Shown here: positions 168 to 38,493 of the stretch, piece after piece | How the letters are laid out: every line of letters begins with the position of its first letter | How positions within the stretch are numbered: the first letter of the stretch is position 1 | Source: a virus | Lineage: Duplodnaviria > Caudoviricetes | Direction: 5' to 3' (one strand) | IMG/VR virus record: IMGVR_UViG_3300044820_000046 | Location: 1 to 40,766 of that record | DNA: 40,766 nucleotides | Notes under the pieces: generated by a model | Seen by the model: the letters and a program-made list of their open reading frames with translations, nothing else | Told to the model about the DNA's origin: nothing | The model's database searches: none | Made by a program: the position numbers and the translations under genes

Positions 168-2147
168 ATGTGGTTCATGCGCCCGAAGATCGACACAACC
201 GACGCGATGACATGGCTCAACTGGCTGGTGCCGGGTGGGCCGTGGACGCTGGTCGCATGCAAGGGCCACGATCCCATCGAAGCGCGGCTTTGCAGCGCCG
301 CTGACGCCCCTTCCTTCCTCGCCAGCCACACACAGCGGGGCCGCATTGTCCGCGTGCTCCTGGGCCAGCCTGCGCCGGGATGGCGCACTTCCAAAGATGC
401 CCCACCCATCGTGCAGTCGCGCTATGTCGGGCTGGCCACATCGATCGCGCGCTTCAAGGAGTTGGACGAGGCCGCGCGCCCGTCGATATGGATCACGGCG
501 CAGGATCACGCAATTGCGGTGTGGCGGCTGAGTTTGCCGATCTCGGGAGATGAATCGCTCGCCGCAATCAGGAAGTTTGGCGCGGAGTTTGGCGGAAAGA
601 TATTGCCGGATATGATCCCGGTCCCGGATCTCGGGAATGGGTTCGCCCGGCACTCATTCCGGTTCGACCGGGACGCGATTGTGTGGCGTGGGCAGTTGCA
701 GTTCTCGCGCGGGCCACAGAAGGCGGCGCCGACCGCAACCCAGCAGCGCAAGCTCGAAGAGACGTTGCGACAGTTCAAGATTGGCGCGACCGTGACCGGC
801 ATGCATGTCGGGCCGGTTGTGACCTTGCTTGATGTGAAGCTCGCGCCAGGCACGAAGGCTTCTCAGGTCGTTACCATCGCAAAAGACATCGCTCGCGACA
901 TGGGTTGCACCTCGGCGCGCATCAATGAGGCCACGGGAGACGGCACAATCGGCATCGAACTTCCGAACAAGAAACGGGAGACGGTTACGTGGCGGCAGAT
1001 GATCGAAAGTGACGCCTTTCAAAACACAAAGGCCGCGCTCCCGATTGCGCTTGGCAAAGCTATCGACGGCACGCCAACCGTTGTCGATCTCGCAACGATG
1101 CCGCACGTCCTTATCGCGGGCACCACGGGCAGCGGAAAATCGGTTGGCATGAACGCAATGATCATGTCGCTGATCCTCAAACTTTCGCCTGTCGATGTGA
1201 ACTTCGTGATGATTGACCCGAAAGAGTTGGAGCTTGCGCCCTATGCGCGCATTCCGCATATGCTCGCGCCTGTTATCACCGAGCCGCAGAAAGCCGTCAT
1301 CGCCTTGACATGGGTCGTTTCCGAGATGGAGCGCCGATACAAGCGGCTGGCTGGCGCGGGCGTGCGCGACCTGGCGAGCTTCAACGCCAAGCGCCCCGGC
1401 GAACGCATGGCCCGCATTGTCGTCGTGATCGATGAGTTTGCGGATTTGATGATGACCTCGGAAAAAGAGGTTGAGCATGCGGTTCAGCGTCTTTCGCAAA
1501 AGGCGCGGGCGGCAGGCATTCATATCATCATGGCGACGCAGCGCCCGAGCGTTGACGTTGTGACCGGCGTGATTAAGGCAAATATGCCTGCTCGAATTTC
1601 CTTCTACCTGAAGTCACGGCATGACAGCGATACGATCCTCGGCTTGCCTGATGCAACGCAACTGCTTGGCCAGGGCGACATGCTGTATTTGTCGAGCAAG
1701 GGCGATTACGGCCGGTATCATGGCCCGTTCGTTTCGGATGATGACGTGGAGGCTGCGACGCGGCGGCTAAGTGGCGGCAACGCGCCTGTTTATGACGAGG
1801 GGCTTATGTCATCCCTGGATGGTGAGGACGGCCCCACCTTCGACAGCGACCGCCGCACGACGCGCATGGACGCCGCGCTTGATGTTTACGCCACACTCAC
1901 CGGCCCCATGCAAAACGCCGTGCGGTTTTTGATGACGTTTTTTCAATCTCGATTGCCGGCGACAACTGATCGTATTTTTGAGGCAGGAGCCCCGCACGGC
2001 ATCCGAGACGGCGGAACCTTTTATCGGGCGTGCAAGATGCTTCAGATCGAAAGCCGCTCCAACGGCAGCAATAAGCCCGCAACACTCATTCCTCCTGCCG
2101 AATGGCCCCTGGGCTTCGAATCCGTGCCTGTCGCGATGATGGCTTAG
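168..2147 (+). CDS. ftsK: FtsK-motor DNA translocase with degenerate RepB'-primase-like N-terminus and C-terminal winged helix
   Basis: FtsK alpha domain (GPVVTLLDVKLAPGTKASQV...IGIELPN), Walker A AGTTGSGKS, IDPKELEL, Walker B VVVIDEFADL, KARAAGIH, ATQRPSVDV. No N-terminal TM segments and no gamma-domain IGYNRAA motif. Confidence 0.9.
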   Translation: MWFMRPKIDTTDAMTWLNWLVPGGPWTLVACKGHDPIEARLCSAADAPSFLASHTQRGRIVRVLLGQPAPGWRTSKDAPPIVQSRYVGLATSIARFKELDEAARPSIWITAQDHAIAVWRLSLPISGDESLAAIRKFGAEFGGKILPDMIPVPDLGNGFARHSFRFDRDAIVWRGQLQFSRGPQKAAPTATQQRKLEETLRQFKIGATVTGMHVGPVVTLLDVKLAPGTKASQVVTIAKDIARDMGCTSARINEATGDGTIGIELPNKKRETVTWRQMIESDAFQNTKAALPIALGKAIDGTPTVVDLATMPHVLIAGTTGSGKSVGMNAMIMSLILKLSPVDVNFVMIDPKELELAPYARIPHMLAPVITEPQKAVIALTWVVSEMERRYKRLAGAGVRDLASFNAKRPGERMARIVVVIDEFADLMMTSEKEVEHAVQRLSQKARAAGIHIIMATQRPSVDVVTGVIKANMPARISFYLKSRHDSDTILGLPDATQLLGQGDMLYLSSKGDYGRYHGPFVSDDDVEAATRRLSGGNAPVYDEGLMSSLDGEDGPTFDSDRRTTRMDAALDVYATLTGPMQNAVRFLMTFFQSRLPATTDRIFEAGAPHGIRDGGTFYRACKMLQIESRSNGSNKPATLIPPAEWPLGFESVPVAMMA

Positions 2148-2149
2148 GG

Positions 2150-2578
2150 TTACGCCTTCCAGTCTTCCGTGATCTCGGTCATTTTTTCCGGCAGGCTTTC
2201 CGAATAGCCACTCAACCACCCGCCGTAATATCCGTTGCTGCTGTTTCGGAACACGATATCGCAAATGCCCTTATCGGTCGTGATCTTGTAACCATACGCC
2301 GCATCTTCTTCCTGTCGTCCGCGTCCATCATCGACATTGTATCCGTCCATGCTGATTTCTTCCGCCGCAGATACGGTGCCTCCGATCAGCGCCGGAACAC
2401 CGACGATATCCGCAAACCACGACTCCGAACAGCAGTCTCCGAAAACGGCAAAAGCGACAATTCCCGCGTCGGTATCAAACGCCAAAACGGACTGATCGTC
2501 GTTGATGGAAATTCGGCTTGTCTTTTTACCGACAAGCGCTGTCATTCCAGGTTCATCGCTACACATATTGTCCTTCAC
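2150..2578 (-). CDS. Conserved-looking acidic phage hypothetical protein
   Basis: Motifs GDCCSESWFADI and YKITTDKG..DIVFRNSSNGYYGG resemble a small phage protein family; converges on ftsK with a 2-nt gap. Start uncertain. Confidence 0.7.
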   Translation of the reverse strand: MKDNMCSDEPGMTALVGKKTSRISINDDQSVLAFDTDAGIVAFAVFGDCCSESWFADIVGVPALIGGTVSAAEEISMDGYNVDDGRGRQEEDAAYGYKITTDKGICDIVFRNSSNGYYGGWLSGYSESLPEKMTEITEDWKA

Positions 2579-2685
2579 CTTCTGCCGTTCATTTTACCGT
2601 AATTCGTTAAGCTCTCCTCCTCCGCCAGCCGTTTTGGACGGGGTTTTGATCGATTTTCCTGGAGATACCAGGGCAACCCGCCTGA

Positions 2686-2859
2686 TTTGCGGGGTGAGCG
2701 CGGTTTGCGGGGTAGGCTGACGCGGGGTAGCGCGGGGTAGGCGCTAACATGCACACTCCCACGCCACGCCGCAGCCACCCAAAAACCAACACTCCCACGC
2801 CAACACCGCACGTTCTTTCGCGGGCACCCCGCAGCCAATCCCGCACCTACCCCGCAAAC
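2686..2859. repeat. Iteron-like repeat cluster (GCGGGGTAG family, direct and inverted)
   Basis: TTTGCGGGGTGAG 2686, TTTGCGGGGTAGG 2704, CGCGGGGTAG x2 at 2721 and 2731. Perfect 14-bp inverted pair 2703-2716/2846-2859. ACACTCCCACGCCA x2 at 2753 and 2789. CCGCAGCCA x2. Confidence 0.85.
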
Positions 2860-4224
2860 TCATTCGCCGTGAACCACGGCCAGTACCGGACGCAACATAA
2901 ACCCCTGGTAATAGGTGTACTTTCGGCGCGTCTCGATGCGGTCGCTGCCGAGCTTATTTTTCATCGCCGTGCCGAAGTCTTTCGGAGAAAGCGCCTTCAG
3001 ATTGCGCGGCTCGCACCATGCAATATAGGCATCCCGGCATTGCCCTGCGGCGGCTTCTGTCCCGGCTTTTTCGATGATGGTCCCGCGCTGCATAGCGTCC
3101 TCGTACCATTCATCAACATCCCCCACATCTCGCATGTCCTCCAGGGCAGCCGCCTTCTTCGCCGCTGCCCCGGATGAACGCGGGACGGATTTACGCGGGA
3201 CCGGAGCCTTACCCTTGCGCTGCTTCGGTTGCGGTTTCGTTAATTGCTCTACCTGTGCGGATGTTTTGAGCGCGGCATCAACCTGTTCGGCTGGCGACGG
3301 CGCTTCCTCTATGCGGATCGGCGCGACTGGCGCGGACACGGTGAGGCGTTTTGACTCAGGTCGCGTCGTGGGGACGTATTCCTCAAAGCGGCGGACGGAG
3401 ACGCTTTCCGGTTCACGCGCCCCAAGCAGCATCAGGAGCGTGAACGGGCCGAACATGGCGACACCTTCGATTGCAAGCGCCGTCAAGATTGGCCGCGTTT
3501 CTGTGATCTGCTCATCGTCGGGCTGGTAGCCTGCGATCGAAAGAAGGCGCACAACCTTGGCTGCGGTCCCATCCGCATGCTGCGGAACGGCGCCGAGCAG
3601 TTTCAGGTCCGCGTTCTTGGTGTCGATCTGCGCCTGGATGTCGTCCGCACGGCGCGTCAATTCACGGTCGGCGGCAATGGTCGGAACCGCGTCAGCCGCT
3701 TCCCTGGAAACCTTCTCGGCGTCTATGCAGCGCTGCGCATAGGGGCGGTCGCATTGCGTCTGCGCTGTTTCCTTGGCGGTAGCCGCCTTGGTGAGCGCGG
3801 CTTTCAGTTTGTCTTCGCTCGTGAAGGTATGGGCCGGCACAGCCTTGAGCCGCGCTTCGAGATCCTTGATTTCCGCCCTCAATGCCTTGTCCTGCGAAAT
3901 CGTCTCGCGCGGCTTTTGCGTCGCCTGCTCCTGCCGGTGCGACGAGTTGTCGAGCGCGTTGAAGAAACTCAGCACAAAGCACAGCGCGCCGATTGCACCG
4001 AAGCAGATTTGCGCGAACAGGTTCTTGCTTTCGCGGATCGCGAACGGCGTCGCTGCGAGGATGATCACGCACACAGTTTGGAACGTCAGCGCCGTCACTG
4101 CGGAACTGTCTGATCCGCCCGTCCGGTAAACGTCCAGCGCATGCGGCCAGATGTTCGCGACCGCGCTCGGCGATAGGCAAAGCGCAGTGATTGCGGCGGC
4201 TGTGATTGTGCGACCTGACGGCAT
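2860..4224 (-). CDS. Membrane-anchored coiled-coil protein with C-terminal P4/D5-primase-type winged helix
   Basis: Three N-terminal hydrophobic segments, a coiled coil with a Cys pair, a fourth TM, a Pro/Lys linker, then DVDEWY...CRDAYIAWCEPRNLKALSPKDFGTAMKNKLG...YYQGFMLRP. GGGAG RBS. Confidence 0.8.
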   Translation of the reverse strand: MPSGRTITAAAITALCLSPSAVANIWPHALDVYRTGGSDSSAVTALTFQTVCVIILAATPFAIRESKNLFAQICFGAIGALCFVLSFFNALDNSSHRQEQATQKPRETISQDKALRAEIKDLEARLKAVPAHTFTSEDKLKAALTKAATAKETAQTQCDRPYAQRCIDAEKVSREAADAVPTIAADRELTRRADDIQAQIDTKNADLKLLGAVPQHADGTAAKVVRLLSIAGYQPDDEQITETRPILTALAIEGVAMFGPFTLLMLLGAREPESVSVRRFEEYVPTTRPESKRLTVSAPVAPIRIEEAPSPAEQVDAALKTSAQVEQLTKPQPKQRKGKAPVPRKSVPRSSGAAAKKAAALEDMRDVGDVDEWYEDAMQRGTIIEKAGTEAAAGQCRDAYIAWCEPRNLKALSPKDFGTAMKNKLGSDRIETRRKYTYYQGFMLRPVLAVVHGE

Positions 4225-4250
4225 GACGAAGGCTCCCCGTTTTCACGCTT

Positions 4251-4330
4251 CAAAGCGTCTTTCTGTCACAGCATCTAGTGCAAAAGATGTCGAGCCATCT
4301 AGCACGCTTGACACATAGACGAAAAGCTGC
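4251..4330. repeat. 8-bp-periodic degenerate array upstream of parA (operator/centromere candidate)
   Basis: In-phase octamers CAAAGCGT CTTTCTGT CACAGCAT CTAGTGCA AAAGATGT CGAGCCAT CTAGCACG CTTGACAC ATAGACGA AAAGCTGC; overlaps TTGACA at 4308. Confidence 0.6.
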
Positions 4331-4408
4331 CTTACCATTTTGTAAGCGAGGTGACTCCAGAAGGCAACGCACTTATGGTTAAGTGCGCATTGCCAAGGAG
4401 CGGGGACC

Positions 4409-5038
4409 ATGAAAATCATTACGTTAGCGCAGCAAAAAGGTGGCGTGGGAAAGACCACTGTTTGCGTTAACCTCGCTTGCCAAGCCCGAAGGCGTAAAAA
4501 GCGGGCAGTGATTCTCGATATGGACACCGAGCAAGGCTCGGCTTTTTTTTGGGGGGAGAGACGGCAGGAGGCGGGATTGCCGCCGATACCTGTTGTGCGC
4601 GTGAGGTCGCATGAATTGCCGACCGTTCTGGAACGGCTGCGCACCGAAAAAGCGGATTGGGTTTTAATCGATTTGCCGGGCCGGAATGTGCCGAGCGCCG
4701 GGCTAAGCATTGCCGATCTTGTTTTGCTGCCGTGTCGCCCTGTCGAGGACGATGTTAGGCCATCCTTAGCAACGGCCAAGGTATTGCGGACGGGCGGCGC
4801 GCGGTATGCCTACCTGATGAATATAGCGCCGTCAGCATCGGACAAATCGAGGGCGCGCAAGGTGGCTGCGGTTTTGAGCGATGCCGGGCACATCGTCGCC
4901 GGGGCGATCATCACGGAAAGGATGGGCGTCCCGGACGCGAACGCCCGAGGGATGGGCATCAACGAGCGCGAGCCAAAGAGCGAGAGCGCGCGCGAATACA
5001 GCGATCTTTACAAGTGGATAGAGGACCAACTTAAGTGA
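4409..5038 (+). CDS. parA: Short (type Ib, ParF-like) ParA partition ATPase
   Basis: Deviant Walker A QQKGGVGKTT, ILDMDTEQGS, Walker B VLIDLPG, ADLVLLPCRP; 209 aa with no N-terminal HTH. Confidence 0.92.
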   Translation: MKIITLAQQKGGVGKTTVCVNLACQARRRKKRAVILDMDTEQGSAFFWGERRQEAGLPPIPVVRVRSHELPTVLERLRTEKADWVLIDLPGRNVPSAGLSIADLVLLPCRPVEDDVRPSLATAKVLRTGGARYAYLMNIAPSASDKSRARKVAAVLSDAGHIVAGAIITERMGVPDANARGMGINEREPKSESAREYSDLYKWIEDQLK

Positions 5039-5328
5039 CAGTGAAAGGTGAAAAGAAAATGACACTCATGAACGCCGCGAAAGATGCGGCGACCCCGCCA
5101 GAGCCGTACAAGCCAGCAGAGGTCAGACCGACGTCTAACAAAAACCATGCGATGACATTTCGCATGTCTATGGAGACAAGGGACTTGCTTGAGAAGGTAG
5201 CCTTTGAGCAACGGACAACGGTTCAGGATGTCGTGGCGGTCGCCCTAGACGAGTGGCTTCGCAAAAAAAACATCGGCAGTTTCACGTATTACAAAAAGGT
5301 CAAGTCGTCTGAAAAACAAGACAGCTAG
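5035..5328 (+). CDS. Ribbon-helix-helix ParG-like centromere-binding partner
   Basis: GTGA overlap with the parA stop; flexible N-terminus then HAMTFRMSMETRDLLEKVAFEQRTTVQDVVAVALDEWLRK (beta-alpha-alpha RHH pattern). Alternative ATG at 5059. Confidence 0.82.
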   Translation: MTVKGEKKMTLMNAAKDAATPPEPYKPAEVRPTSNKNHAMTFRMSMETRDLLEKVAFEQRTTVQDVVAVALDEWLRKKNIGSFTYYKKVKSSEKQDS

Positions 5329-5388
5329 GCAGTGAGCGGCTTTGACCGCTAGACGTCTAGATGGCAAGATGTTGCGATAGCTAGAGGG
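5301..5388. repeat. 8-bp-periodic CTAGA array downstream of the RHH gene (parS/centromere candidate)
   Basis: In-phase octamers CAAGTCGT CTGAAAAA CAAGACAG CTAGGCAG TGAGCGGC TTTGACCG CTAGACGT CTAGATGG CAAGATGT TGCGATAG CTAGAGGG; perfect palindrome CTAGACGTCTAG 5349-5360. Confidence 0.75.
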
Positions 5389-5397
5389 AATCGCATC

Positions 5398-6159
5398 ATG
5401 ATTTATTTCGTCCATTCAGACCAGTACATCAAAATAGGCTTCTCTGGTGTGCAAAGCCGGGTGTTTGGGGACGACACTTACAATCCGCACGCCATGACGT
5501 TGATCGGGTCAATCCCTGGCGACGTCGAGCGCGAAAGGGAACTACACCAAGAATTTTCACACCTTAGGCACAGAGGGGAATGGTTCCGAGCTCATTACAG
5601 CCTTGTCTTTTTCATAGAAGAAAAACTCAAGGAAGAGGGGGCAATTTACGTTAACAGTAAGTTCTTGGCCACATTGAAAGGGAAGGCTAACCCCGTCAGG
5701 ATAGCTGAAGACATGGCTAAGCGCGCATTGAGCCACAAGAAGGACTTCGACGAGTGGGTAGAAAGAAACGACCCGGAGCGATTGGCTGAGTACGAACTTG
5801 AGTCTGCCTTAGAGGCTCTTAGCAACTATGCATTCTACATATACGAAGACGACAAAGACGGGGATGCCATTATTCAATGGGTCTTGAACCTTGTCATGGC
5901 CGTAAGAGAGTTCAACAAAGCAAGACCGATTGAGTTTGCAACCGACCGCAGCATAACGTGGTCAAGACTGCGTGCCGAAAGGTATTTCAGGCTGTTCAAC
6001 CCGTTTATCGGGGAAACAGGCTTGACAGCGCCAATCCACTACGACCCGTTTGATGTTCAGAAGTATGTGAAACCTGAAATTAAGAAAAAGATCAGGTGTG
6101 TTCAGGAGATTGTAAAAACCGCTGCCGAAGACGCTAAAAACAAGCCAAAAGCAGCATAA
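5398..6159 (+). CDS. GIY-YIG superfamily (T5orf172/MUG113-like) domain protein
   Basis: MIYFV...YIKIGFS...NPH..TLIGSIPG...ERELHQEFSHLRHRGEWF; more AT-rich than its neighbours. Confidence 0.85.
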   Translation: MIYFVHSDQYIKIGFSGVQSRVFGDDTYNPHAMTLIGSIPGDVERERELHQEFSHLRHRGEWFRAHYSLVFFIEEKLKEEGAIYVNSKFLATLKGKANPVRIAEDMAKRALSHKKDFDEWVERNDPERLAEYELESALEALSNYAFYIYEDDKDGDAIIQWVLNLVMAVREFNKARPIEFATDRSITWSRLRAERYFRLFNPFIGETGLTAPIHYDPFDVQKYVKPEIKKKIRCVQEIVKTAAEDAKNKPKAA

Positions 6160-8410: not shown

Positions 8411-8670
8411 TACGCAGCCTGTGGCGTAGGGCTTATCAAGGTGGGATTCGAGATGTTTTCAGAAGCGGCCTGTGCTGACAAATAAAGTCCAGCTCCAGCC
8501 GAGACGATGCCGCCAACCGCATCAAGGATTGGCGCGAGCACGGAATTTGCGGTCGGCGCATCAAGGCCGAATTTGATCAGCAAGCCGGTTCCGACCATCT
8601 TGAGTGCGGATCGCACAAGGGACTGGATCTGCGCATTACCGAGAAACGTGAGTAAGAGCCTGGCGAGCAT
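8410..8670 (-). CDS. Putative nested in-frame holin (86 aa) translated from an internal start
   Basis: GGAGG-TTTCC-ATG inside the endolysin frame; product has two to three hydrophobic helices. Confidence 0.55.
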   Translation of the reverse strand: MLARLLLTFLGNAQIQSLVRSALKMVGTGLLIKFGLDAPTANSVLAPILDAVGGIVSAGAGLYLSAQAASENISNPTLISPTPQAA

Positions 8671-9498
8671 GGAAACCTCCGGTTTTACAGGCGACAAGGG
8701 GGATAGCGCTTGCTTGAGCGCCGCGAGTGTGTTCGGCCCAGCGATGCCGTCCACGGTCAAATTGTGTTCCTGCTGGAACGTCATAACTGCGGTTTGAGTT
8801 TGCGGGCCGTCGAAGCCGTCAACCGTGAGATTGAAGCCGAGCTTGTTCAGGGACTCCTGCACGGCCTTGATTTCCGCAGACGGCTCAGGAGCAAGGTTTT
8901 CGCCCTGGCTCCATTTCGCATAGGACGCAGCCAGCTTTTCGTCGTAGCGGTTTCGGCGATACCCGGCCCCGTTGTAACCCTTGGCAAAGGCGGCCCACCG
9001 ATGCGCGGCCAGGTCGTCATCGATCTTCGAGTATTTGATCTCGCCGACCATCGCTTCGATCTGGGCGTCGATATTGCCCCGCATCGCATTGACCATGCTC
9101 GATGCGCTGTCGTAGCCCAAATGCTCGGCCTGGAAGCCCATTGTTTGCCCGACCCCCCATGATGCCGCGCGGTAGGCGCAATCGGCGTCTACGGCCACCG
9201 CCCGCCCGAGAAGGGCGAGCCGTCCTTTGCTCGTCCCCTGGTCCTTGTATTGTGTGGCGGGCTGCCAACTGGCGTTTGCCAGCCCATCGGTTATCGCTTC
9301 GTTGAGTTTTCCCGGCGCGCGGGCGTGGAGCTGCTGGTAGAAAATATGCCGCTCGAACAAGAATTGCGGCGTCGTGCCATCAGCAATCTCGAACGGCGCC
9401 CCGGCGCTTTCGATATCGACTACAGCAAGGAGCGCCGCAGCTTCGATGCCGTGAGCGTCCGCAGCCTTGCGAACAGCCGTTTCAACGTCCGCTCTCAT
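8410..9498 (-). CDS. Endolysin: N-acetylmuramidase (DUF3380-type) + PG-binding domain + C-terminal holin-like segment
   Basis: AVVDIESAG, FLFERHIF, ASWGVGQTMGF, WAAFAKGYNG..Y..NRYDEKL; PG_binding_1 VDGFDGPQT...FQQEHNLTVDGIAGPNT; hydrophobic tail. Confidence 0.92.
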   Translation of the reverse strand: MRADVETAVRKAADAHGIEAAALLAVVDIESAGAPFEIADGTTPQFLFERHIFYQQLHARAPGKLNEAITDGLANASWQPATQYKDQGTSKGRLALLGRAVAVDADCAYRAASWGVGQTMGFQAEHLGYDSASSMVNAMRGNIDAQIEAMVGEIKYSKIDDDLAAHRWAAFAKGYNGAGYRRNRYDEKLAASYAKWSQGENLAPEPSAEIKAVQESLNKLGFNLTVDGFDGPQTQTAVMTFQQEHNLTVDGIAGPNTLAALKQALSPLSPVKPEVSMLARLLLTFLGNAQIQSLVRSALKMVGTGLLIKFGLDAPTANSVLAPILDAVGGIVSAGAGLYLSAQAASENISNPTLISPTPQAA

Positions 9499-18709: not shown

Positions 18710-21700
18710 CTATCGAGCCAGAGCGCGCGCCAGATCACCCAGCCGCAGCTTTTCGCGCCGCCCGGTGAGTGCGTGTGCGAGTTTGTCGTTTGGCCGCTCG
18801 GGTGGTGCAGGAGGGGCGGGGAGGGGCTTTGCGGGGTGCGGCGCGGCGCGGCGTGCGTAGGTTATGCGGGGGTCGTTGGGGTCGAAGGTGCCACGGTTTC
18901 CGATGGCGCTTTTGATTTGCGTCGGGTCAATGACGGCGATTTCATTGATTTTTCCGTTTTCGTGAAAAATAAGGGCGTCCGGGGTGCGATTTGGATCGGT
19001 CCCTTTCCACCTCGGCCATTCCTCCGTCGCGCTCTTGCTTTGGTTGTAGTAAGCGGGATTTTCGGCCTTTATGTAGGCGGGATACATCAATCCTGTATTC
19101 TCGGCCGTGTAATGACCTGCATACTCGGGGTGAGGGCTGAAAAACGATCCGTCCCTAAATTGCATAAGGCCGAACGGTTCGTTGTTCTCTTTCGCTTTCC
19201 TGAATCGTTCCAAAGTGTTCTGTGGGTCGCCGCGTTTCCCGCCGCCTTCTGGCAAAAAAGCTTCGATGTCCGGCGACGTGGTGCCGTGGTAAACAACAAG
19301 CGGCTTACCGTTCTTGTCTACGATCTTGCTTTTCCCGAACCACTTGCGAAAAGCTGGCGTATCCGTCTGCAAAGTCGGCTTCGTCGCTTCTTTCGCCGCC
19401 TTCGAATAATCCCCCCGCAAAATCCCTTCGAGCGCATCCTTAACCGGCGCAATCTGCTCATCCGTCAGCGCGCCGTGCTTGTAAAGCTCCATCATGTGAG
19501 ACGCGGCTTCTTCATCCATCGCGCTTTTCATGGCGCGCGGGGAGCGATCGCTGTATGCGTCTTCATAAGCTTCGCGCCAAGTTCCAGGCAGCGCTTCTTT
19601 CCAACTTGGATCGCCGATCTCTTTCAGGTAATCTTTCGCTTGACGATCCATAATTCCGAGGGAATCAGAATGTCTGACAAGAGCTTGCCTGATGGGCGCG
19701 GGGATATTCCGCCAGTTGGCGTGAACAACCTCGTGAGCGATAGCGCCGCCAGTAAGCCGCGCCGCCACATCACTTTGAACGTTGCCGGATTTAACGCCCA
19801 CATCACCAGACGGCGCGAAAGAGCCGAGGCGGAAGCTGACAAGGCTTCGGGTGTCGGGGTCGTAAAAAGCCCGAGCATGGGAGATGGCGTTGCTATCGAC
19901 GGGCAGCATAAAGGTTGAGCCGTCAGGGTGCTTGAATGTCGCCTTGTACTCGCCGGGACCAGAAGACTCAAGCGATGCCAGCGCGCCGAGTTTCGTCCCT
20001 TCTGGGATCGCCGCGACGTAGGGCTTCATCGCTTCGTGCGCGGCTGTGATGATCTCATGCGGCGCTTCGACGGCGCGTCCTGCCGCGAGTTGAGACATGG
20101 CGTGGGTGCGGGCTTCGGAGTCGCCTTTCAGCGCATAAGCCTGTCCGGGGCCACCTTCCGAAAGCGCCTCGTGCATTTCTGGCGTGATGCGCAGGATCAG
20201 ATGACCGTTTTCCGAGTCAGAATCTGGCAGCCATTCCTTCTCAAGCTTGCCGCCCCACTGCTTGGCGTAATCACCGAGCCAGCGCGGAAGCTTCTGATCG
20301 TAGAATACCTTCAGAGAGCCAGATTTAGCGCTGTTAGCGGCCTCAACCTGTTCGGCGTCTGGAAGCACAAGAGCATCATAACCGCCCTCCACGGCCTTCC
20401 TGAGAGCCACCTTGGCCGCCATCTGCCAAGTACGATCTTTTTGATAGGCGTAGGACGGCACATTCTCGCCGGGCCGCGCCGCGTCGGCACTGAAGCGGCT
20501 TTGAATGTGGTTTAGAAGTAGCCCTGTGCCGCCGTCTGGCATCGGGATATCGGAATGCGTGACGTGCGCGACCACAGGGCCATGCTGCGCTTTGCTGCCC
20601 TCTTCCTGATTCCAATGCGGCTCGGAGTATTTGCCTTCGAGGTCGTTTGCGCGGATCAGCGTCTCTTGATAATTCGTGCCGCCAGCAAGCCGCGTGCCGG
20701 GGTATTGCGTCTCGTCGTCCTTGATTTGCGCAAGCCGCTCGTCGGCAGCCTTTTTCGCCTGCTGTGCTTCAATCACATCGTCGCGTTTGACCGAGCGCGC
20801 TTCGTCGGGAAGCTGATAAAAGCTTTCCGTGCGGTATTTCGCGGCGAGGCGTTCGAATTTGTCGGTTGCGGCGTCAGCCTCGGCGCGGGCGTCTTCCGCT
20901 GCGTCGCGGCTTAGCGTGCGCTCTTCGAGATCCGGCGCATTGCCGCGCAGATGGTTGAGGAGTTCGGTTTTCGTGACCGATTTCTTGCCTGCCAGCCAAT
21001 CTTCGGTGCCCGTATGCGCGAGATAATCTTTCGCGCCGGGGAGCTTGTTCAGCGCCGCGAGCCATTGTTGCGGGGCGGCTTTGTCTTGCGGGAAAGTTTC
21101 GACGGCGCGTTCAAAGGGGGAATGGAAGCCGCGAAGGGCAAACATTTTGCCTTCGTTCGGCTGCGCATCGGGGTGCTCGGCGTGGATCTCACGAATGGCC
21201 GTCTGCGCGCCCGACATATTCGGAAGCGTCCCCCACTCGGTATCTGATGGCTTCAGGTTCTCGATCTGGTCGATGTCGAAATGGCGCGGAGCAAAAGACT
21301 TGACCGGACCTTTCGACGTACTGCCGCCAGTCTGCACGCCATGAACGCGAGCGCGGCTTCCTTCAACGTCATTCACAAGTCCGATGCGGTGCGGGGAAAA
21401 CTCCCGAGGTGCGCCTTGGTACTCAAAAGCAAGAGGCTGACTCGCCTCCATTGCCTTGTAAACTTGGTCGTAAAGATCGGGGCGAGTGCCTTTTTCTTTG
21501 TGCGGCACTTGCTCAAGTGTCGGGTAGCGGCCTCTTAAGCCGTTTTCGTGTGCAGCCTCGGCAGGACCGGGCCGCGCGGCGGTAGCTCCAAAAAGTTCTT
21601 TCTGATTTTGTGCGTCACCGAACAGCCCTTCATGCTGCAACTCAGCGTTCCCGCCTCGCAACGGCTTGTTGGCCTGCGCTTGCAAGCGCTCTCGATCTGT

Positions 21701-23911
21701 TACGGGGGCGACGCCAGGAATAAGCTGTTGAGGCTTCCCTTCGGCCCCAGCCTCAAATTGAGGTTCCGGTTTCGCGGACTGCGACGCGGCTCGGAATGCT
21801 TCCGGGCTTGGTTCGCCGCCGCCGTTCTCTTTAACGAGGCGATTATACCGCGAAAGCCATTGGTGCGCCGTCAGGACTTCGTATTTATCCTGATTTATGG
21901 CTTCAGCGGTCTTTCTTTCAAAGGTTTCAAGAGCGGGCTTGCCAGTTTCTTTTGAAACGACAACCCAACTGCCAGACATGCCATCGTTTAGTTCTGGGAT
22001 TGGCCTTGCGTTGGGGTTGGGGTTGACGGTTGCGGCTGCGTTGCCTGCTGGAGCGCGGCCTGCGCCTTCTCCGCTTGCGACTGGCGCAACTTCGCCATGT
22101 TCTCCGCCGCGCTCGCGATTGCTGAGATCTGCGCTTTCGCGTGCGGCACGGTCGAGAGTTCCGCCCGGCGCCGCAACATCGCTGCGGCTTGGTGATAGTG
22201 TTCCGCTGGGTGTTTCATTGGCCTCCCATCCTGGAAAATAATCATGATGCGCAATGGTTTGGATATGCTGTTCAGGCGACAACGTATCACTAACCTCGCG
22301 CACGATCAAATCGTGGATCACATCGTCGGGATTCTCTCCCCGCGAAATGCGCGTCGCGGCCTCGTCCTTAAACGCTTCGGGGAATGCATCGAAGTCTTGA
22401 GCGAATGTCGTGCCGTGCTCGGCGTCGATCTCGCCAAGCTTCCGGCCCGCTTCGGCGTGAAGCCGCTGCTGCTCGGCAAATTGCTGATCGTTGACTTGCT
22501 TGGTGACGTGGGTTTGGTCGTTACCGTAGGGCGTGACGCGTTGCTTTGCGATCAGGTCGCGAGCGAGCGTATCGTAAAAATCGGGGAGAGCATGCGGCGA
22601 TTCGGCATTTGGGTCGGTGTAACCCATGTAGCCGTGTTCTATCATCGAGCCGAGGGCTGTATCGTGAGGCTTGCCCTTATTGCTGATCAGGCCAGGGAAC
22701 TTCTGCGGCGTGATGCCGAGGTTCGTCAATTCCGTGCTCGGCTTGATGCCGCCGTTTGCCTTCAGGAAGCCGAGAAGCGACAACGGCTCGCCGTTGGCTT
22801 TATGCGTTTTGAACCCGGCGCTTGGAGGGGCCGCAGGAGCGCGCGAGACTGGCGCAGCAGGCTCGACGTTGGGCGCTACGGCAGGAGCGGGCGGCGCTTC
22901 CGGGGCTGTGCGAGCTTCTGTGGGCGTCTCAGGCGGAAGGCCAATATCGGCGGGAAGGCGTTCGCGCGGCGGCTCGGCGAGGCGTGCGGACCATAGGCTT
23001 TCATCCGGCGCGTTCGCGGGCTGTTCGACATTCGTTGCCGCTTCGGGCTTCGGTTGCAAATCAGCGGAACGCAATTCTGTCGCAGGCTGCTCGGTCGGCG
23101 CTGGCTTCGGCGCTTCCGGCGAAGGCACAACGCCGTCAGGATAGAGATCGCGACGCGGGCCGGTGCCGAAGACATCGTGTTGGACCGGCTTCGGGTTGTT
23201 CCAGTCGTAGAGGTCAACGAAATAGGGCGGCGCGGAAGGTGCGGTCGGTGCGGCAGGCTTCGATTCCGGTGCCGGGGCCGGACCCTTTGGCCCTTCAAGC
23301 CCAAGCGGCGCGTGATCCACCCAATCGTTGACGCCGCGCATGCGGTCGATGAATGCGGCGTTTTCGGCTGGCGTTGAAAGCTTCGGCCCTTTGATGCCGG
23401 TTTCGCGCCCGTAAGCGATGCCATAAGGGTGCGCGAGTCCGGCTTCCATCGTCGCGCCAAGCGTCTGTGCTGTTTCCGGGTATCGCGCAACGGCTTGTGC
23501 CTGCGCTTCCTGTTCGGCGCGCTGGTATCTTTCAGGCTCGACGCCAGCGGGAAGGTCGCGCGTTCCAAAGCGAGAATAATACATCGTCCGCGCGGCGTCT
23601 GCGGCGGTCCCGAGGTTCGCTTGCCCGGCAGTCAGGCCGGGGATCGGGTCCAGCATGGAAGCAATGCCGCCCGCGTCGGAGGCGGACGGGTTTGCGTAAA
23701 ACTCGCTCGCTTCCTGGCCTAAGCGCTTGCCGCGCTCCTCGATGCCGTGGCGCAGGCTTTCAGGCACATAGCTCCACGCTTTCGACAAGATGCCGGGTTG
23801 CTCGACGGGCGCATGATCAATCCAGTCGCCGGGGTCGGTATTTGGAGCGGCCGCAACAGGGGCGTGCTCGATCCAGTCGCCAGGATCGACGGAAGGCGTC
23901 CAGTCGGCCAT
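18710..23911 (-). CDS. Large polyvalent ejection protein (WYL-like, LPD-like, HExxH and ADP-ribosyltransferase domains)
   Basis: 1733 aa; C-terminal TPAFRKWFGKSKIVDKNGKPLVVYHGT...FFS...YIKAENP...EIAV..PTQIKSAIGNRGTFD (ART-PolyVal pattern); AHEVVH; WYL-like segment. Confidence 0.85.
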   Translation of the reverse strand: MADWTPSVDPGDWIEHAPVAAAPNTDPGDWIDHAPVEQPGILSKAWSYVPESLRHGIEERGKRLGQEASEFYANPSASDAGGIASMLDPIPGLTAGQANLGTAADAARTMYYSRFGTRDLPAGVEPERYQRAEQEAQAQAVARYPETAQTLGATMEAGLAHPYGIAYGRETGIKGPKLSTPAENAAFIDRMRGVNDWVDHAPLGLEGPKGPAPAPESKPAAPTAPSAPPYFVDLYDWNNPKPVQHDVFGTGPRRDLYPDGVVPSPEAPKPAPTEQPATELRSADLQPKPEAATNVEQPANAPDESLWSARLAEPPRERLPADIGLPPETPTEARTAPEAPPAPAVAPNVEPAAPVSRAPAAPPSAGFKTHKANGEPLSLLGFLKANGGIKPSTELTNLGITPQKFPGLISNKGKPHDTALGSMIEHGYMGYTDPNAESPHALPDFYDTLARDLIAKQRVTPYGNDQTHVTKQVNDQQFAEQQRLHAEAGRKLGEIDAEHGTTFAQDFDAFPEAFKDEAATRISRGENPDDVIHDLIVREVSDTLSPEQHIQTIAHHDYFPGWEANETPSGTLSPSRSDVAAPGGTLDRAARESADLSNRERGGEHGEVAPVASGEGAGRAPAGNAAATVNPNPNARPIPELNDGMSGSWVVVSKETGKPALETFERKTAEAINQDKYEVLTAHQWLSRYNRLVKENGGGEPSPEAFRAASQSAKPEPQFEAGAEGKPQQLIPGVAPVTDRERLQAQANKPLRGGNAELQHEGLFGDAQNQKELFGATAARPGPAEAAHENGLRGRYPTLEQVPHKEKGTRPDLYDQVYKAMEASQPLAFEYQGAPREFSPHRIGLVNDVEGSRARVHGVQTGGSTSKGPVKSFAPRHFDIDQIENLKPSDTEWGTLPNMSGAQTAIREIHAEHPDAQPNEGKMFALRGFHSPFERAVETFPQDKAAPQQWLAALNKLPGAKDYLAHTGTEDWLAGKKSVTKTELLNHLRGNAPDLEERTLSRDAAEDARAEADAATDKFERLAAKYRTESFYQLPDEARSVKRDDVIEAQQAKKAADERLAQIKDDETQYPGTRLAGGTNYQETLIRANDLEGKYSEPHWNQEEGSKAQHGPVVAHVTHSDIPMPDGGTGLLLNHIQSRFSADAARPGENVPSYAYQKDRTWQMAAKVALRKAVEGGYDALVLPDAEQVEAANSAKSGSLKVFYDQKLPRWLGDYAKQWGGKLEKEWLPDSDSENGHLILRITPEMHEALSEGGPGQAYALKGDSEARTHAMSQLAAGRAVEAPHEIITAAHEAMKPYVAAIPEGTKLGALASLESSGPGEYKATFKHPDGSTFMLPVDSNAISHARAFYDPDTRSLVSFRLGSFAPSGDVGVKSGNVQSDVAARLTGGAIAHEVVHANWRNIPAPIRQALVRHSDSLGIMDRQAKDYLKEIGDPSWKEALPGTWREAYEDAYSDRSPRAMKSAMDEEAASHMMELYKHGALTDEQIAPVKDALEGILRGDYSKAAKEATKPTLQTDTPAFRKWFGKSKIVDKNGKPLVVYHGTTSPDIEAFLPEGGGKRGDPQNTLERFRKAKENNEPFGLMQFRDGSFFSPHPEYAGHYTAENTGLMYPAYIKAENPAYYNQSKSATEEWPRWKGTDPNRTPDALIFHENGKINEIAVIDPTQIKSAIGNRGTFDPNDPRITYARRAAPHPAKPLPAPPAPPERPNDKLAHALTGRREKLRLGDLARALAR

Positions 23912-31981: not shown

Positions 31982-34072
31982 TCAGTGTTGTTCTTTGGGA
32001 ATCAAGAGGATGTCCATGCGATACCGCTCGGCTACGCGGTAGCCGAACGTCTCGCAGATCCAGTCCGGCGTTTCGCCGTGGGCGACGCCGTATCGTGTCG
32101 AAAGCCCGTTGTCCTCGATGGTGATCACGGGCCGGAATTTGCGGATCGTGTCCGCAGCGCCTTCGAGGGCGCGCTTTTCGTAGCCTTCAACGTCGAGGCA
32201 GATCGCGTCGCAGGCGGCGAGGTTGAGGCTGTCGATGGTGACGATTGCGACCGCTTCGCCTTGCGCGAGATAGCGACCGGACGAGTTTTGAAATCCGTCA
32301 ACCGCAATGCCTGCGTATCCCGGCTTATCGCCGAGCGCATTGTTGTAGGCGACGACAGGTGAGGCATCGATGCAGTTCCGCATCAGAGCCTCATAGTTGA
32401 GCGGGTCCGCCTCGAACGTCACGACGCGGGCAAAGTGCTTGGCCAACTCTTTCGGCCATATGCCAACGTGTCCGCCCGCCTGGACAACGGTCCCGCGTCG
32501 GCCGCAGTATTTGAGCACTTCCTGCACGTCGAGCGCGGTATTGTCGTTCAGGATGTAGACCGAAGTCGCGTCGCCGTATGGCGTCAAAAACCCTTCCACC
32601 TCGATGAACTTGCCGTCGATGATTTCAACTGGCGTCGCCTTCTTCGCGACGATCCAGGCTAGAAGCCCTTCGCCGGCCGCCGAGATCGAGCAGCCGTTTT
32701 CGATGAGCGTATCAACGAGCGTGTTGAACTCGTTCGCCTGTGTCGCCATCCACGGCGCGCATTGAAAAACGCGGTGCTCGCAGATAACCGTGAGCGCCTT
32801 TTCGCCCTCGTTCAAAGGCTGCGGATAGGAATGGTGCTGCCCGTCGATATAGCAGCCATCCATGCCGTAGAGATGCAGCTTGCGATACCCGGACAGGTAG
32901 GCCAGCAGCATCGCCTTCAAGCCGACCGTGGAGCCGCCACCGAGCAAATGCGTGGGCTGTTCGCCCGGCATCGCTTCAAGAAGCTCCTGCACGCCTTCCG
33001 TGGCGTTGTGGTAGAGCGTCACCTTCGCGTCATGCGGCACCGTCTCAAACACGCCAGGATGGCACTGTGAGGCGATGAGAAAATCAAGCTCCCAATGAGG
33101 CAGAGACACGAATGCGGCGTTCTCGGGCCGCGCATCGAGGATCACAACGGCATCAGGGCGAATGGAGTGGTCGCAGAGATATTTCGCGGCGCCGTTCAGC
33201 GCCCAAATCTTGCCGCCAGCCGCTTTCGCCGCGCGGATTTGGCTGATATTCGCGCCGAGCGAGGGACCGCCGCCGCAGATAAGCACGAAGCCGTCATGCT
33301 CGGGTTGAATGTCGAACCACGGAACGTCGCGCGCACAGGCTGAATGGAAGTTCGCCAGGATGCGCTCGTTTTCCGTGTTGCAGATCACGTCAAGTTCGGC
33401 GTGCGAGATGCCGCCCAGCTTCCAGACTTCCGGCACCCAGCCACCGTCGATGAGGTGCGGCTTGTTCTCGGGGCCGTGGAAACAGACGACGCTTGCGCCT
33501 TCCGGCATGCGACGCCCGAGCTTGCGAAATGAAACGAACCGCTTCGGAAACATATCCTGCCAGAAATCGACAGGCTTGGTGCCCATGCAGCGCTGAATCC
33601 ACTCTTGGTCGCCTTCCTCGCAATGAGGGAAGCAGGCACGTTCGAACGAGGTCCAGATGTCGGTCAGGCCAGGAGCGCCGACACGCCAGCCCATGAAAGC
33701 GCTTCCGAAGCCGTGCGCGCGGTCCATGACGTTGTGCAGGATTGCGAAATCACCGCGGTAGGCCAGAATTTCATCGAGCCGCCCGGTGATCAAGTTGTCG
33801 AGATCCGAGAAGAAGACGTGATCGCCATCCTCGAAGACGCCCGACTTGAAAAGGGCCAGCTTGTTATACCAGCCCGATAGACCGGGATGGGGCAGGGGGC
33901 GAACGCGGACGCCTGGAATGTACCCGGCGTCAGGTTGATCGGTGAAGACGACGAACTTTCCTTGATAGCCTTCGGCTAGGTTGCGCGAGATCGAGTCGAA
34001 CAGGTTGTTGACGTACTCAGCGCCGCGAGATTGGTAATTGCCTGCGTTTACGCAGCAGATGGTGATAGACAA
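31982..34072 (-). CDS. Triple fusion: GT-A glycosyltransferase + MptE/DUF115-like + FkbM methyltransferase
   Basis: GWYNKL, FSDLD, GDQEWI, VCFHG..KPH; ICGGGPSL, GGSTVG, LYGMD; VVQAGGHVGIW, LDVEGYE..ALEGA..I.KFRPVI.IE. Confidence 0.88.
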   Translation of the reverse strand: MSITICCVNAGNYQSRGAEYVNNLFDSISRNLAEGYQGKFVVFTDQPDAGYIPGVRVRPLPHPGLSGWYNKLALFKSGVFEDGDHVFFSDLDNLITGRLDEILAYRGDFAILHNVMDRAHGFGSAFMGWRVGAPGLTDIWTSFERACFPHCEEGDQEWIQRCMGTKPVDFWQDMFPKRFVSFRKLGRRMPEGASVVCFHGPENKPHLIDGGWVPEVWKLGGISHAELDVICNTENERILANFHSACARDVPWFDIQPEHDGFVLICGGGPSLGANISQIRAAKAAGGKIWALNGAAKYLCDHSIRPDAVVILDARPENAAFVSLPHWELDFLIASQCHPGVFETVPHDAKVTLYHNATEGVQELLEAMPGEQPTHLLGGGSTVGLKAMLLAYLSGYRKLHLYGMDGCYIDGQHHSYPQPLNEGEKALTVICEHRVFQCAPWMATQANEFNTLVDTLIENGCSISAAGEGLLAWIVAKKATPVEIIDGKFIEVEGFLTPYGDATSVYILNDNTALDVQEVLKYCGRRGTVVQAGGHVGIWPKELAKHFARVVTFEADPLNYEALMRNCIDASPVVAYNNALGDKPGYAGIAVDGFQNSSGRYLAQGEAVAIVTIDSLNLAACDAICLDVEGYEKRALEGAADTIRKFRPVITIEDNGLSTRYGVAHGETPDWICETFGYRVAERYRMDILLIPKEQH

Positions 34073-34153: not shown

Positions 34154-34774
34154 TTATTTACGTGCGTTCGGCCCGTTCCAGGCGTTCGCACGCTTGATGG
34201 TCAAGGCGTCCTTCAGGGGCCAGCCCATACGAATGCGCTCATAAACGCGACGCCATTTCATGCCGTGCATTTCGGAAAGCTCGGCTAGAGACTTCATCTC
34301 GCCGTTCCATTCGAAATGAGGGGAAACCTCCCGATTTCTGATCTGCTCTTTTCGTGTTGCCCAGTAGCAATTCCCGGGTTCGTAATTGCCGTTGTTGTCT
34401 CTGCGTTCAATGCTTTTCCCGCCAGGTTTGACACCCATATCCTCAAAGAAATTAATAAAAGAGTGCCAACGCTCGCAGACCACAATCCCTCGACCACCAT
34501 AGCGATGATACCAACGGTTATTTTTGTTGTAGCATCGCCCTTTCATTTGCGCCCAAGACATATAAGTTGGCGTCTTTTCCATTCCGTGCTCGCGGCACCA
34601 ATCCTTACCCTTACACCCGCAGGATGTGCTCGTGCCATGAACAAGTGTTGCAGAAAGAACAGGTTTTATTTCACCACAAGAACATTTACAGACATATCTT
34701 ATAGGCGTCCCGAGGCATCTTTCTAAAACAAACCAATCTCCAAACTGTTTTCCAGAAATATCTTCATGTTTCAT
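34154..34774 (-). CDS. Free-standing HNH-type homing endonuclease
   Basis: CKCSCG, STSCGC, HGM..TPTY.SW..MK.RC, YGGRGI.VCERW..F.NF..DMG, SIERRDNNGNYEPGNCYWAT; AT-rich; GGAGG RBS before ATG 34774. Confidence 0.88.
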   Translation of the reverse strand: MKHEDISGKQFGDWFVLERCLGTPIRYVCKCSCGEIKPVLSATLVHGTSTSCGCKGKDWCREHGMEKTPTYMSWAQMKGRCYNKNNRWYHRYGGRGIVVCERWHSFINFFEDMGVKPGGKSIERRDNNGNYEPGNCYWATRKEQIRNREVSPHFEWNGEMKSLAELSEMHGMKWRRVYERIRMGWPLKDALTIKRANAWNGPNARK

Positions 34775-34831
34775 GTATTGGCCTCCATGTTCTGAGGCCA
34801 ATACATTACACCAATGCTAGAACAAGGTCAA
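34773..34831 (-). promoter_or_regulatory. Promoter plus RBS-sequestering hairpin of the HNH gene
   Basis: TTGACC-17-TAATGT; perfect 13-bp inverted repeat 34773-34785/34794-34806 covering most of GGAGG and the start codon. Confidence 0.75.
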
Positions 34832-35338
34832 CTATGTTATCTGACCTTGGAGGTGGGGCCTCGAAATTGTGACCACGATGGTTGAGGTCGTAGATGTCAC
34901 AGAAGACAAGTTCGCAGAGCGAGCGCCGAGAATTTGAGTTCCAGACGAAGCGACGGCTTTCACTCGCCCGGCGTTTGCGCCAAGATAAAGTGAAACCTGC
35001 TTTAGAATCTGGACCGCATCCTTTTTGGCGACGGCATTGCCCTCGATGATGTACCAGCCGTAGCTCGACGCCACGTTGGCCGACATCGCCCAGGCGACAG
35101 GAGCCCCCGTGTTGCCCGCGGTCCTCAGAGGAATCGCGGTCTGGTAGGTTGTCGCGTTGTACGTGACCATCGTCCCAACGGTCGTGTTGGCCACGCCGAG
35201 CAGATAGATGAACTCGCCGTGTCCATAGGTTGGGTCCCAGCCCGAAACAATCGTGCCGAGCGGGTGAAGTGCAGTCGTTGAGGTGTCGGCGATTGCCTGA
35301 GCACCAATGCCCCCAGAGGAGGATACAGTATAAGCCAT
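34832..35338 (-). CDS. Capsid decoration/cement protein
   Basis: PLGTIV..WDPTYGHGEFIYL.GVA.T.VG, PVAWAMSANVA..YGWY; follows the MCP. Confidence 0.78.
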   Translation of the reverse strand: MAYTVSSSGGIGAQAIADTSTTALHPLGTIVSGWDPTYGHGEFIYLLGVANTTVGTMVTYNATTYQTAIPLRTAGNTGAPVAWAMSANVASSYGWYIIEGNAVAKKDAVQILKQVSLYLGANAGRVKAVASSGTQILGARSANLSSVTSTTSTIVVTISRPHLQGQIT

Positions 35339-35344
35339 GTTAAG

Positions 35345-35989
35345 TTATTCCTGATGAGGTTTTGGACCGCGATTGATCTTTGGCGTGCGAAGCGCCCGAT
35401 CCAAATCCCAGCCCGTTTTCAGCCTGTTTCTTAAGATTGCAGGCTTGATGCCGAAGCGCTCAGCCAACGTAAGCAGCGGAACTTTTTCGCCATCAAAAAC
35501 GACATATGTCGTGCAGTCTCTATTTCTTTGCTGCTGCGTTGGCGTCGCCCATCGGCAATTATTTGGGCTATACCCCTCATCATTGCGCTCGCGATCCAAG
35601 CTTGTCCCAGCAGGACGCTCGCCCATGTCTTGAAGGAAGCTTTCAAAGCTGTGCAGCCACCGATCGCAAACTGTTATCCCTTTCGCTCCATATCTTTGAA
35701 ACGATGGATCAGATGGATTTGTGCAGCGCTGACGCATTGAGTCCCAACTTTTAAAAGTTGGAGTTCCTGTCATGCCATGCGTGCTGATGGCTTCTCTATG
35801 GAGACAGCCACAGGACCGACTTTTCCCAGAAGTAAGGAGGCCGGTCCTTATGGGCTTTATGGTTCCGCATTTGCATTGACAAATCCAGAGCCAATATCCC
35901 TGTTCATCCCTATGAGATCTAGAGAGAACCTTTAGATAACCAAAGGTTTCCCCAGAAACGTCCAGTCTTCGCGGCTTTCTCTTTTGCAT
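35345..35989 (-). CDS. Second free-standing HNH-type homing endonuclease
   Basis: WICQCKCG, SRSCGC, HGMTGTPTF.SW..MR.RC, YGAKGITVCDRW, SLDRERNDEGYSPNNCRWAT; paralogue of 34154-34774. Confidence 0.88.
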   Translation of the reverse strand: MQKRKPRRLDVSGETFGYLKVLSRSHRDEQGYWLWICQCKCGTIKPIRTGLLTSGKSRSCGCLHREAISTHGMTGTPTFKSWDSMRQRCTNPSDPSFQRYGAKGITVCDRWLHSFESFLQDMGERPAGTSLDRERNDEGYSPNNCRWATPTQQQRNRDCTTYVVFDGEKVPLLTLAERFGIKPAILRNRLKTGWDLDRALRTPKINRGPKPHQE

Positions 35990-38415: not shown

Positions 38416-38458
38416 TCTGTTTGCTCTGTTTTATTCCTGAATTATCAAGTGATTACGC

Positions 38459-38493
38459 TTCAAGCATCAGAACGAATCACGTACATTCATCGC
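38459..38493 (+). promoter_or_regulatory. Putative leaderless promoter of tnpB with a GANTC site
   Basis: TTCAAG-17-TACATT, 6 nt before ATG 38494, no SD; CGAATCAC in the spacer. Confidence 0.55.

Follow-up and report, generated by a model that had tools for sequence, protein, structure and literature searches.

A candidate phage DNA-membrane tether beside partition genes, and a probably separate FtsK chimera, in a podophage-type genome

Do the first 5.4 kb of a phage genome encode one DNA-pumping machine or two devices that happen to lie side by side? The stretch of DNA analysed here, referred to as the window, is the IMG/VR record IMGVR_UViG_3300044820_000046 (Duplodnaviria; Caudoviricetes) at its full length of 40,766 nucleotides, and it makes up the whole virus record (G000), which is linear and estimated to be 80% complete. 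Between positions 168 and 5388 it encodes a 659-aa protein with an FtsK motor, a 454-aa predicted membrane protein that ends in a winged helix, a short ParA and a ribbon-helix-helix (RHH) protein, together with several clusters of short repeats. An initial annotation of this region had read the two large proteins as the halves of one split, TraB-like machine, and all open reading frames (ORFs) concerned (659, 454, 209 and 97 aa) are indeed present. As far as the sequence tells, the region likely consists of two separable units rather than one machine, and the explanation favoured here, which we give about an even chance of being right, is that the membrane protein acts as a DNA tether through sites located at its gene, in combination with a type Ib partition system, and that the FtsK motor loads itself and works separately.

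The membrane protein, its repeats and the partition genes

The features of the first unit are as follows, with transmembrane abbreviated as TM and helix-turn-helix as HTH:

2686..2859, no strand: convergent GCGGGGT(AG) array, four copies on the plus and two on the minus strand, around a C/A-rich spacer with two ACACTCCCACGCCA copies
2860..4224, minus strand: 454-aa predicted membrane protein, with TM1-3, a coiled-coil hairpin with C158/C166, TM4, a basic Pro-rich linker and a D5/RFX-type winged helix
3080..3200: CGCGGGAC in three copies within the part that codes for the linker, at the place of the third repeat cluster of relatives; no significance by itself
4256..4321: MWAGAYG/CTAG heptad cluster between the divergent genes, a candidate and likely RHH operator or centromere
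4409..5038, plus strand: short ParA ATPase, 209 aa, type Ib-like, without N-terminal HTH (Pfam scan)
5035..5328, plus strand: RHH protein, 97 aa, likely the centromere-binding partner (Antitox_RHH below cut-off)
5324..5388: second CTAG/MWAGAYG cluster, after the RHH gene

Hydropathy alone places four hydrophobic segments in the 454-aa protein (residues 7-25, 45-63, 69-87 and 249-267), and an AlphaFold2 (AF2) model computed from a 79-row alignment, with a predicted local distance difference test score (pLDDT) of 85.9 overall and above 90 in the C-terminal alpha/beta domain, arranges it as three N-terminal TM helices, a long helical hairpin, a fourth TM helix, a disordered basic linker and a compact C-terminal domain. 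Two cysteines at the hairpin tip are conserved throughout the family (C158 in 78/79 and C166 in 79/79 members), and from this pair and the order of the helices the hairpin is predicted to be periplasmic and the winged helix cytoplasmic. The winged helix is recognised through the family, as Pox_D5 is matched by 14/79 and RFX by 12/79 members, with the C-terminus of the 454-aa protein giving a weak Pfam match on its own (E 0.057); at the family level the domain matches PDB 1DP7 (E 0.0016), and it also matches the C-terminal end of phage D5-type primases (phrog_1829). A winged-helix profile matched 84 of 100 representatives longer than 330 aa, a count that is partly circular, while 5/79 members carry a different, regulator-type HTH in its place. 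The four hydrophobic segments, the helical hairpin and the Pox_D5/RFX matches of the family bear out the earlier description of a four-TM coiled-coil protein with a winged helix.

Pfam has no separate entry for the family, which surfaced solely in an exhaustive phmmer search, with 147 representatives at E ≤ 0.001; word-index or tblastn searches with the 454-aa protein returned the protein itself or nothing, and searches with two of its relatives returned nothing in plasmids or phages. Foldseek gave no PDB match to the model at E ≤ 0.001 over the whole protein and eight matches in BFVD, all uncharacterised or unnamed, and a complex prediction with three copies of residues 1-272 (score 0.32, mark 0.42) counts for neither side. 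Another protein, P0042, also has this D5-type winged helix (45% identical to that of the 454-aa protein), joined there to a MUG113/T5orf172 domain as found in the window gene that follows the RHH gene (5398-6159).

The ParA-RHH pair itself is an ordinary set of partition genes. It had been described as a divergent pair with repeats, of which the heptad clusters stand, but parA and the RHH gene are co-directional and overlapping, and it is the pair as a whole that diverges from the 454-aa gene. Five MWAGAYG heptads cluster within a 100-nt span upstream of parA and four downstream of the RHH gene, the densest occurrences of the motif in the window; with a motif chosen post hoc, 5 of 2000 random placements reached four heptads and none reached five. 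Antitox_RHH is below the cut-off in the window and above it in four related loci (L066, L074, L076 and L077), and no close viral locus was found for the window ParA. The parA intergenic region of L066 holds a separate TCTGATC array.

The linkage of the membrane protein to such genes recurs in its relatives. Nineteen loci carrying a 454-aa homolog were fetched, several of them short or truncated (the family pattern found no locus in GTDB genomes), and in seven a divergent parA lies directly upstream (L066, L069, L072, L074, L075, L076 and L077), corresponding to five lineages once L069, L072 and L075 are merged. L066 repeats the window layout exactly, with a ParA 45% identical to that of the window. 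Behind the membrane-protein gene of L069 (3680-3900) and L072 (after 11078) stand ATTGCCACCGG repeats and, by eye, a partial tRNA-Thr, which suggests an integration end.

The second element that accompanies the gene is its repeat array. Six GCGGGGT copies lie at 2689-2855 and the last one abuts the stop codon of the 454-aa gene, hence the repeats do adjoin this gene as reported, while the term 'iterons' was an interpretation and no observation. The array is likely, as a candidate, the binding site of the 454-aa protein. The family motif is densest in the window at this point (eight copies in 200 nt, reached by 1/1000 random placements, the motif again being post hoc), and the 250 nt after the gene hold eight motif copies versus 2.7 per kb elsewhere in the window. 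For the in-gene test, the motif YGCGG(G/C)R(C/G/T) was counted in 12 intact genes and in 300 synonymous shuffles of each, and four genes beat all 300 of their shuffles, namely L066 (16 vs 8.2), L069 (20 vs 5.9), L072 (22 vs 8.4) and L074 (17 vs 6.5). The copies in these four occupy both strands and several frames, and their clusters are placed alike, near the 5' end, at the coil start and in the linker (the last not in L066); most repeats are deep in the coding sequence or 3' of the gene, away from the promoter. The frameshifted L077 lists 12 in-gene copies, so that arrays within the gene occur in most of the seven parA-linked loci. A basic wing is common to L066, L069, L072 and L074, the four array-bearing proteins, and the array is found neither in L068 and L071, which have an acidic wing, nor in L067, L073, L079 and L080, which give no winged-helix match. 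The family also includes TM-only members.

Further details of the repeats concern single loci. The L066 array (8525-8700) has grown in frame within the coiled-coil linker, where a 60-nt duplication contains its 12-nt units. The genes without winged helix in L079 (2213-3226) and L080 (2992-4026) stand behind integrase genes and have CCGTGAC repeats in both orientations. Three array copies of the window (2710-2742 and 2846-2853) read GGGTAGG(C/T), which agrees with seven of the eight letters of the consensus of the FtsK-orienting polar sequences (KOPS). Promoter and terminator scans of the region gave results at chance level only.

Under the favoured explanation, the membrane protein would anchor phage DNA at the inner membrane via the GCGG(G/C)R repeats that its gene contains or adjoins, and ParA and RHH would see to the partition of the copies. 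The 454-aa protein would insert N-in, with its disulfide-tipped coiled coil in the periplasm and its winged helix in the cytoplasm, and the winged helix, coming from the origin-binding end of D5/P4-type primases, would quite probably bind the adjacent repeats, with binding in cis favoured because the gene carries its own sites. RHH would bind the CTAG-type heptads and ParA would move the DNA as in type Ib systems, while the tether would hold or place the extrachromosomal copy at the membrane. Membrane tethering of phage DNA, part of the earlier proposal for the two proteins together, thus remains plausible for the 454-aa protein, which travels with parA(-RHH) and with arrays.

The FtsK chimera

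The second unit is the 659-aa protein, and between it and the array lies one further gene:

168-2147, plus strand: 659-aa chimera (ORF call)
168..722, plus strand: N-domain, residues 1-185, RepB'-primase-like fold, likely catalytically dead (Atlas structure look-alikes)
723..1800, plus strand: FtsK alpha+beta motor, intact Walker A (GTTGSGKS), Walker B and ATQRPS (Pfam)
1860..2147, plus strand: C-terminal domain at the gamma position, predicted winged helix, common to AAA_25 helicase proteins
2150..2578, minus strand: DUF7448 protein (Pfam E 4.5e-17)

Pfam assigns FtsK_alpha to residues 187-267 and FtsK_SpoIIIE to residues 277-462 of the 659-aa protein (E 7.9e-62 and 1.2e-20), and the best PDB chains for the motor are 2IUS/2IUU; the motifs in it are Walker A, Walker B and ATQRPS. 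No hydrophobic window was found by hydropathy in residues 1-200 and hence no N-terminal membrane anchor, and neither the 4TM family nor FtsK_gamma is among the best 5 of 7 Pfam families for the protein. The FtsK motor without TM anchor that was claimed at the outset is therefore confirmed, and so is the lack of a gamma match, but the C-terminal end is not bare, as a conserved 90-aa domain takes the gamma position after a short acidic linker. The C-terminal 105 aa match no Pfam family at E ≤ 1 and a single-sequence AF2 model of the chimera (pLDDT 39) is unusable for the fold of this domain; helix pattern and family context predict a winged helix, which probably reads DNA. Profile comparison found no detectable relation between this domain and the winged helix of the 454-aa protein. 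The N-domain has no Pfam match by sequence, while its Atlas look-alikes include RepB_primase clusters (TM-score 0.69-0.77, predicted models being compared with each other), and it is likely an inactive RepB'-primase-like fold because no Asp or His is invariant in it across 15 AAA_25 relatives, with the catalytic motif positions of RepB'/archaeo-eukaryotic primases (AEP) judged against their consensus.

The 659-aa protein appears to be a motor swap, in which a cellular-type FtsK stands in place of an AAA_25 helicase with the flanks retained. A search with residues 1-200 found three proteins among 1298 candidates, namely the chimera itself, a second FtsK chimera (P0003) and an AAA_25 protein (P0004), which is 62% identical to the chimera over residues 3-188 and 71% over residues 566-655 with no match between. 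Searching with P0004 gave 22 proteins, 20 with AAA_25 and 2 with FtsK. Both chimeras nest with P0004, or with P0004 and P0159, inside the AAA_25 set in trees of the N-domain (16 rows) and the C-domain (9 rows), with support of 99/98 and 100/98, hence the FtsK form is derived; the C-domain clade joins P0003, P0004 and P0159 with the window chimera (100/98). The motors of the two chimeras share 55% identity and form one group (92/84) beside three cellular-type FtsKs in a 17-row tree that covers 15 of 23 loci first chosen, a placement that fits a single capture of an FtsK motor from a host. An assembly artefact as the source of the fusion is ruled out by the independent second chimera at 61% identity. 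The FtsK chimera is known from two clusters only, and a search of viral, GTDB and metagenome contigs with its N/C-domain pattern came back without a locus. With the AAA_25 flanks, the RepB'-like fold and the D5-type winged helix, the claim that both large proteins derive from primase-helicase parts holds up.

For this second unit the favoured explanation supposes that a single lineage exchanged the AAA_25 helicase of a dead-primase/helicase/C-domain protein for a cellular FtsK motor. The retained C-domain would likely stand in for gamma and load the hexamer on phage DNA, which would then be cleared or remodelled. The chimera would thus be a self-loading double-stranded DNA motor for which the membrane protein is not needed.

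Some observations on the surroundings of the chimera can be added. Run X1, from which this DNA possibly comes, has a short contig in which the FtsK part from 722 on, the N-domain/motor junction, is preceded by 30 other letters that are absent from the window, with a depth of ~5 to the left and ~15 to the right; a strain variant, an insertion or the end of a genome might lie behind this junction. Parts of the N-domain gene (window 177-655) are also matched, with differing letters, by three X1 contigs of low depth, and related phages with a chimera-type N-domain seem to share the sample. Upstream of the chimera, a cut gene (2-109) resembles by eye the tail of a 5'-3' exonuclease, with no Pfam match. 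Downstream, the DUF7448 gene between FtsK and the GCGGGGT array has no homolog in the 19 related loci and is likely an unrelated insertion.

One machine or two, and the competing explanations

In the window the 3' end of FtsK lies 0.7 kb from the membrane gene, and joint occurrence in relatives is the check that the initial annotation had itself proposed. Run from the membrane-protein side, it went against a common machine, as FtsK stands beside 0/19 membrane-family loci (the chimeras and P0004 gave no match at E ≤ 0.01) and is absent from the two virus records G001 (52% complete) and G002 (77% complete), and Pfam on 120 ORFs from 14 of 17 metagenome loci detected no FtsK. In the other direction, the membrane-family profile matched 0/64 viral FtsK loci, which is a weak test as those FtsKs are ordinary and non-chimeric. 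Since the chimera keeps its own C-terminal domain at the gamma position, sequence reading need not have been split off to a partner either. One split TraB-like machine is not supported.

Several points weigh against the favoured explanation or narrow its reach. No parA is visible in 12/19 loci, several of which are truncated: L067, L068 and L071 are PolA-type phages in which the gene follows a primase/helicase gene, L078-L080, L083 and L084 are one lineage with the gene after tandem integrases, and others are short pieces. Because these parA-less members sit after primase/helicase or integrase genes, the membrane module would seem to have other uses beyond partition, and its conserved periplasmic hairpin is unexplained by simple tethering. 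Among the repeats, of which the motifs were chosen post hoc, the 454-aa gene of the window itself is not enriched (6 copies vs 5.4 in shuffles), the L066 array is partly a tandem duplication, and L069 and L072 are one lineage. L076 has parA and a winged helix with 0 family-motif copies in the gene and five CGTCCT upstream, while L080 has another in-gene repeat, CCGTGACG (1/300 shuffles), and no winged helix, hence arrays can exist without one. The locus search pattern favoured one part of the family, and downstream DNA in the 15 measured loci extends to at least 1 kb in 11 and to at least 2 kb in only 9. Finally, integrases occur in the relatives L066 and L076, and with them a stable plasmid state cannot be taken for granted.

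Part of the same evidence would suit a membrane-anchored origin, which is unlikely. The repeats would then act as iterons, and the 454-aa protein would initiate replication or organise the origin from the membrane. The layout would resemble repABC, which comprises partition genes and an initiator whose gene holds the origin, with the FtsK chimera as a replication motor in place of the lost helicase. The primase-type winged helix, the convergent repeats inside or next to the gene, the primase-helicase scaffold of the chimera and the family members that directly follow a primase/helicase gene all agree with this, as does the lack of another helicase or primase among the 39 window ORFs, a count taken from a record that is only ~80% complete. 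However, the spacer of the array is not AT-rich, FtsK motors translocate rather than unwind duplex DNA, and L066, the locus with the window layout, has helicase, RecA and SSB genes of its own.

A transmembrane regulator or exclusion protein is improbable. Its hairpin would sense the state of the envelope or block incoming DNA, and its winged helix would use the repeats to repress either the gene that encodes it or the divergent par operon, which would account for the conserved periplasmic domain with its Cys pair, for the TM-only members and for the regulator-type HTH in 5/79 members, but the repeats are for the most part not promoter-placed and the domain comes from an origin-binding module, not from a regulator family.

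There is only a slim chance of a split TraB/Spd-like pump, in which the anchor-less FtsK would dock on the 454-aa protein, load at the array between the convergent genes and move phage DNA across a septum, through a bud neck or between cells. In its favour, only the membrane anchor is missing from an otherwise intact motor, the array lies between both 3' ends and the TraB-SpdB2 interaction offers a precedent (PMC4447253), but to the missing linkage in 19 loci and two virus records are added a chimera found in 2 clusters versus 147 membrane-family representatives, the absence of a recognised outer-membrane channel gene in the window by general ORF scans, and a budding host that is hypothetical. 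For such a host, a report on Hyphomonas stalk transit only raises FtsK as an untested candidate (PMC6650430). It is just as doubtful that this lineage recruited the chimera onto a membrane-tether cassette that was there before, so that two proteins would form a sequence-loaded pump for double-stranded DNA; that this recruited pump would be a TraB/Spd analogue of primase-helicase parts in a Gram-negative host, working at the division neck or towards a neighbouring cell, is a similarly faint prospect.

The phage, its likely host and known systems

The window encodes head and tail genes of podophage type, and the best named relative of its capsid is Bradyrhizobium phage ppBjS10J-1 (44.6%). An alphaproteobacterial host is likely, because the motor of the 659-aa protein is nearest to alphaproteobacterial FtsK (50-56% identity) and the related locus L077 has as neighbour a gltA 78% identical to rhizobial genes. 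Virion and partition genes, one trait of phage-plasmids, are both present. As to a putative plasmid replicon and extrachromosomal prophage state, neither an integrase nor a Rep was found among the 39 window ORFs scanned in this linear, 80% complete record. Elsewhere in the window, the virion gene block includes a 1733-aa protein with an ART-PolyVal domain at its C-terminus (18710-23911, minus strand) and a 696-aa protein in which glycosyltransferase-like, MptE-like and FkbM methyltransferase domains are fused (31982-34072, minus strand), and there are two HNH endonuclease genes near the capsid gene and an IS605-type TnpB (34154-35989, minus strand, and 38449-39681, plus strand).

No description of the cassette or of the chimera was found in a literature search of incomplete coverage. 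If the favoured explanation is true, a sequence-specific DNA-membrane tether with sites in its own gene, recurring beside ParA-RHH, would be an undescribed partition accessory, and the old idea of membrane-attached segregation of mobile DNA could be put to the test on three small genes and two repeat arrays. Between flanks that are 62-71% identical, the chimera is a clean natural helicase-to-FtsK swap and a ready system for studying how DNA motors are retargeted. Should both units work together, they would amount to a TraB-like pump outside Actinobacteria.

Compared with cellular FtsK/SpoIIIE (2IUS, 2IUU), the chimera has the same intact alpha+beta motor and a C-terminal domain after an acidic linker at the gamma position, but in place of the 4TM anchor and a gamma match it has the flanks of an AAA_25 primase-helicase. 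The Streptomyces TraB/clt/SpdB2 system likewise brings an FtsK-type motor, short repeats and a four-TM coiled-coil protein close together. TraB has its own membrane part, reads 8-bp direct repeats in clt and interacts with SpdB2, which has four predicted TMs, forms pores, is present on some actinophages, carries its coiled coil at the N-terminus (aa 1-99) and binds DNA non-specifically (PMC4447253). In contrast, the coil of the 454-aa protein lies between TM3 and TM4 and a winged helix forms its end, the host is likely Gram-negative, and the two genes are not found together in relatives. The window array is convergent, and in relatives the repeats track the membrane protein rather than FtsK.

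Type Ib partition systems consist of a short ParA, an RHH adaptor and short repeats, and the window resembles them in its 209-aa ParA without HTH, the overlapping RHH gene and the heptad clusters that flank the operon, but differs in that a membrane-protein gene with a separate repeat array recurs in divergent orientation beside parA. The D5/P4-type primases share with the 454-aa protein the winged helix, through family-level profile matches, and repeats in both orientations near the gene, as in the repeat layout of the P4 ori, but the 454-aa protein is without primase or helicase, its domain being fused to a membrane/coiled-coil module. Over its whole length the 454-aa protein has no sequence or fold match to any solved structure. 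Like phi29 p16.7 and B. subtilis RacA, which are DNA-to-membrane tethers, it would link DNA to the membrane, but it differs from them as a predicted polytopic protein with a periplasmic hairpin.

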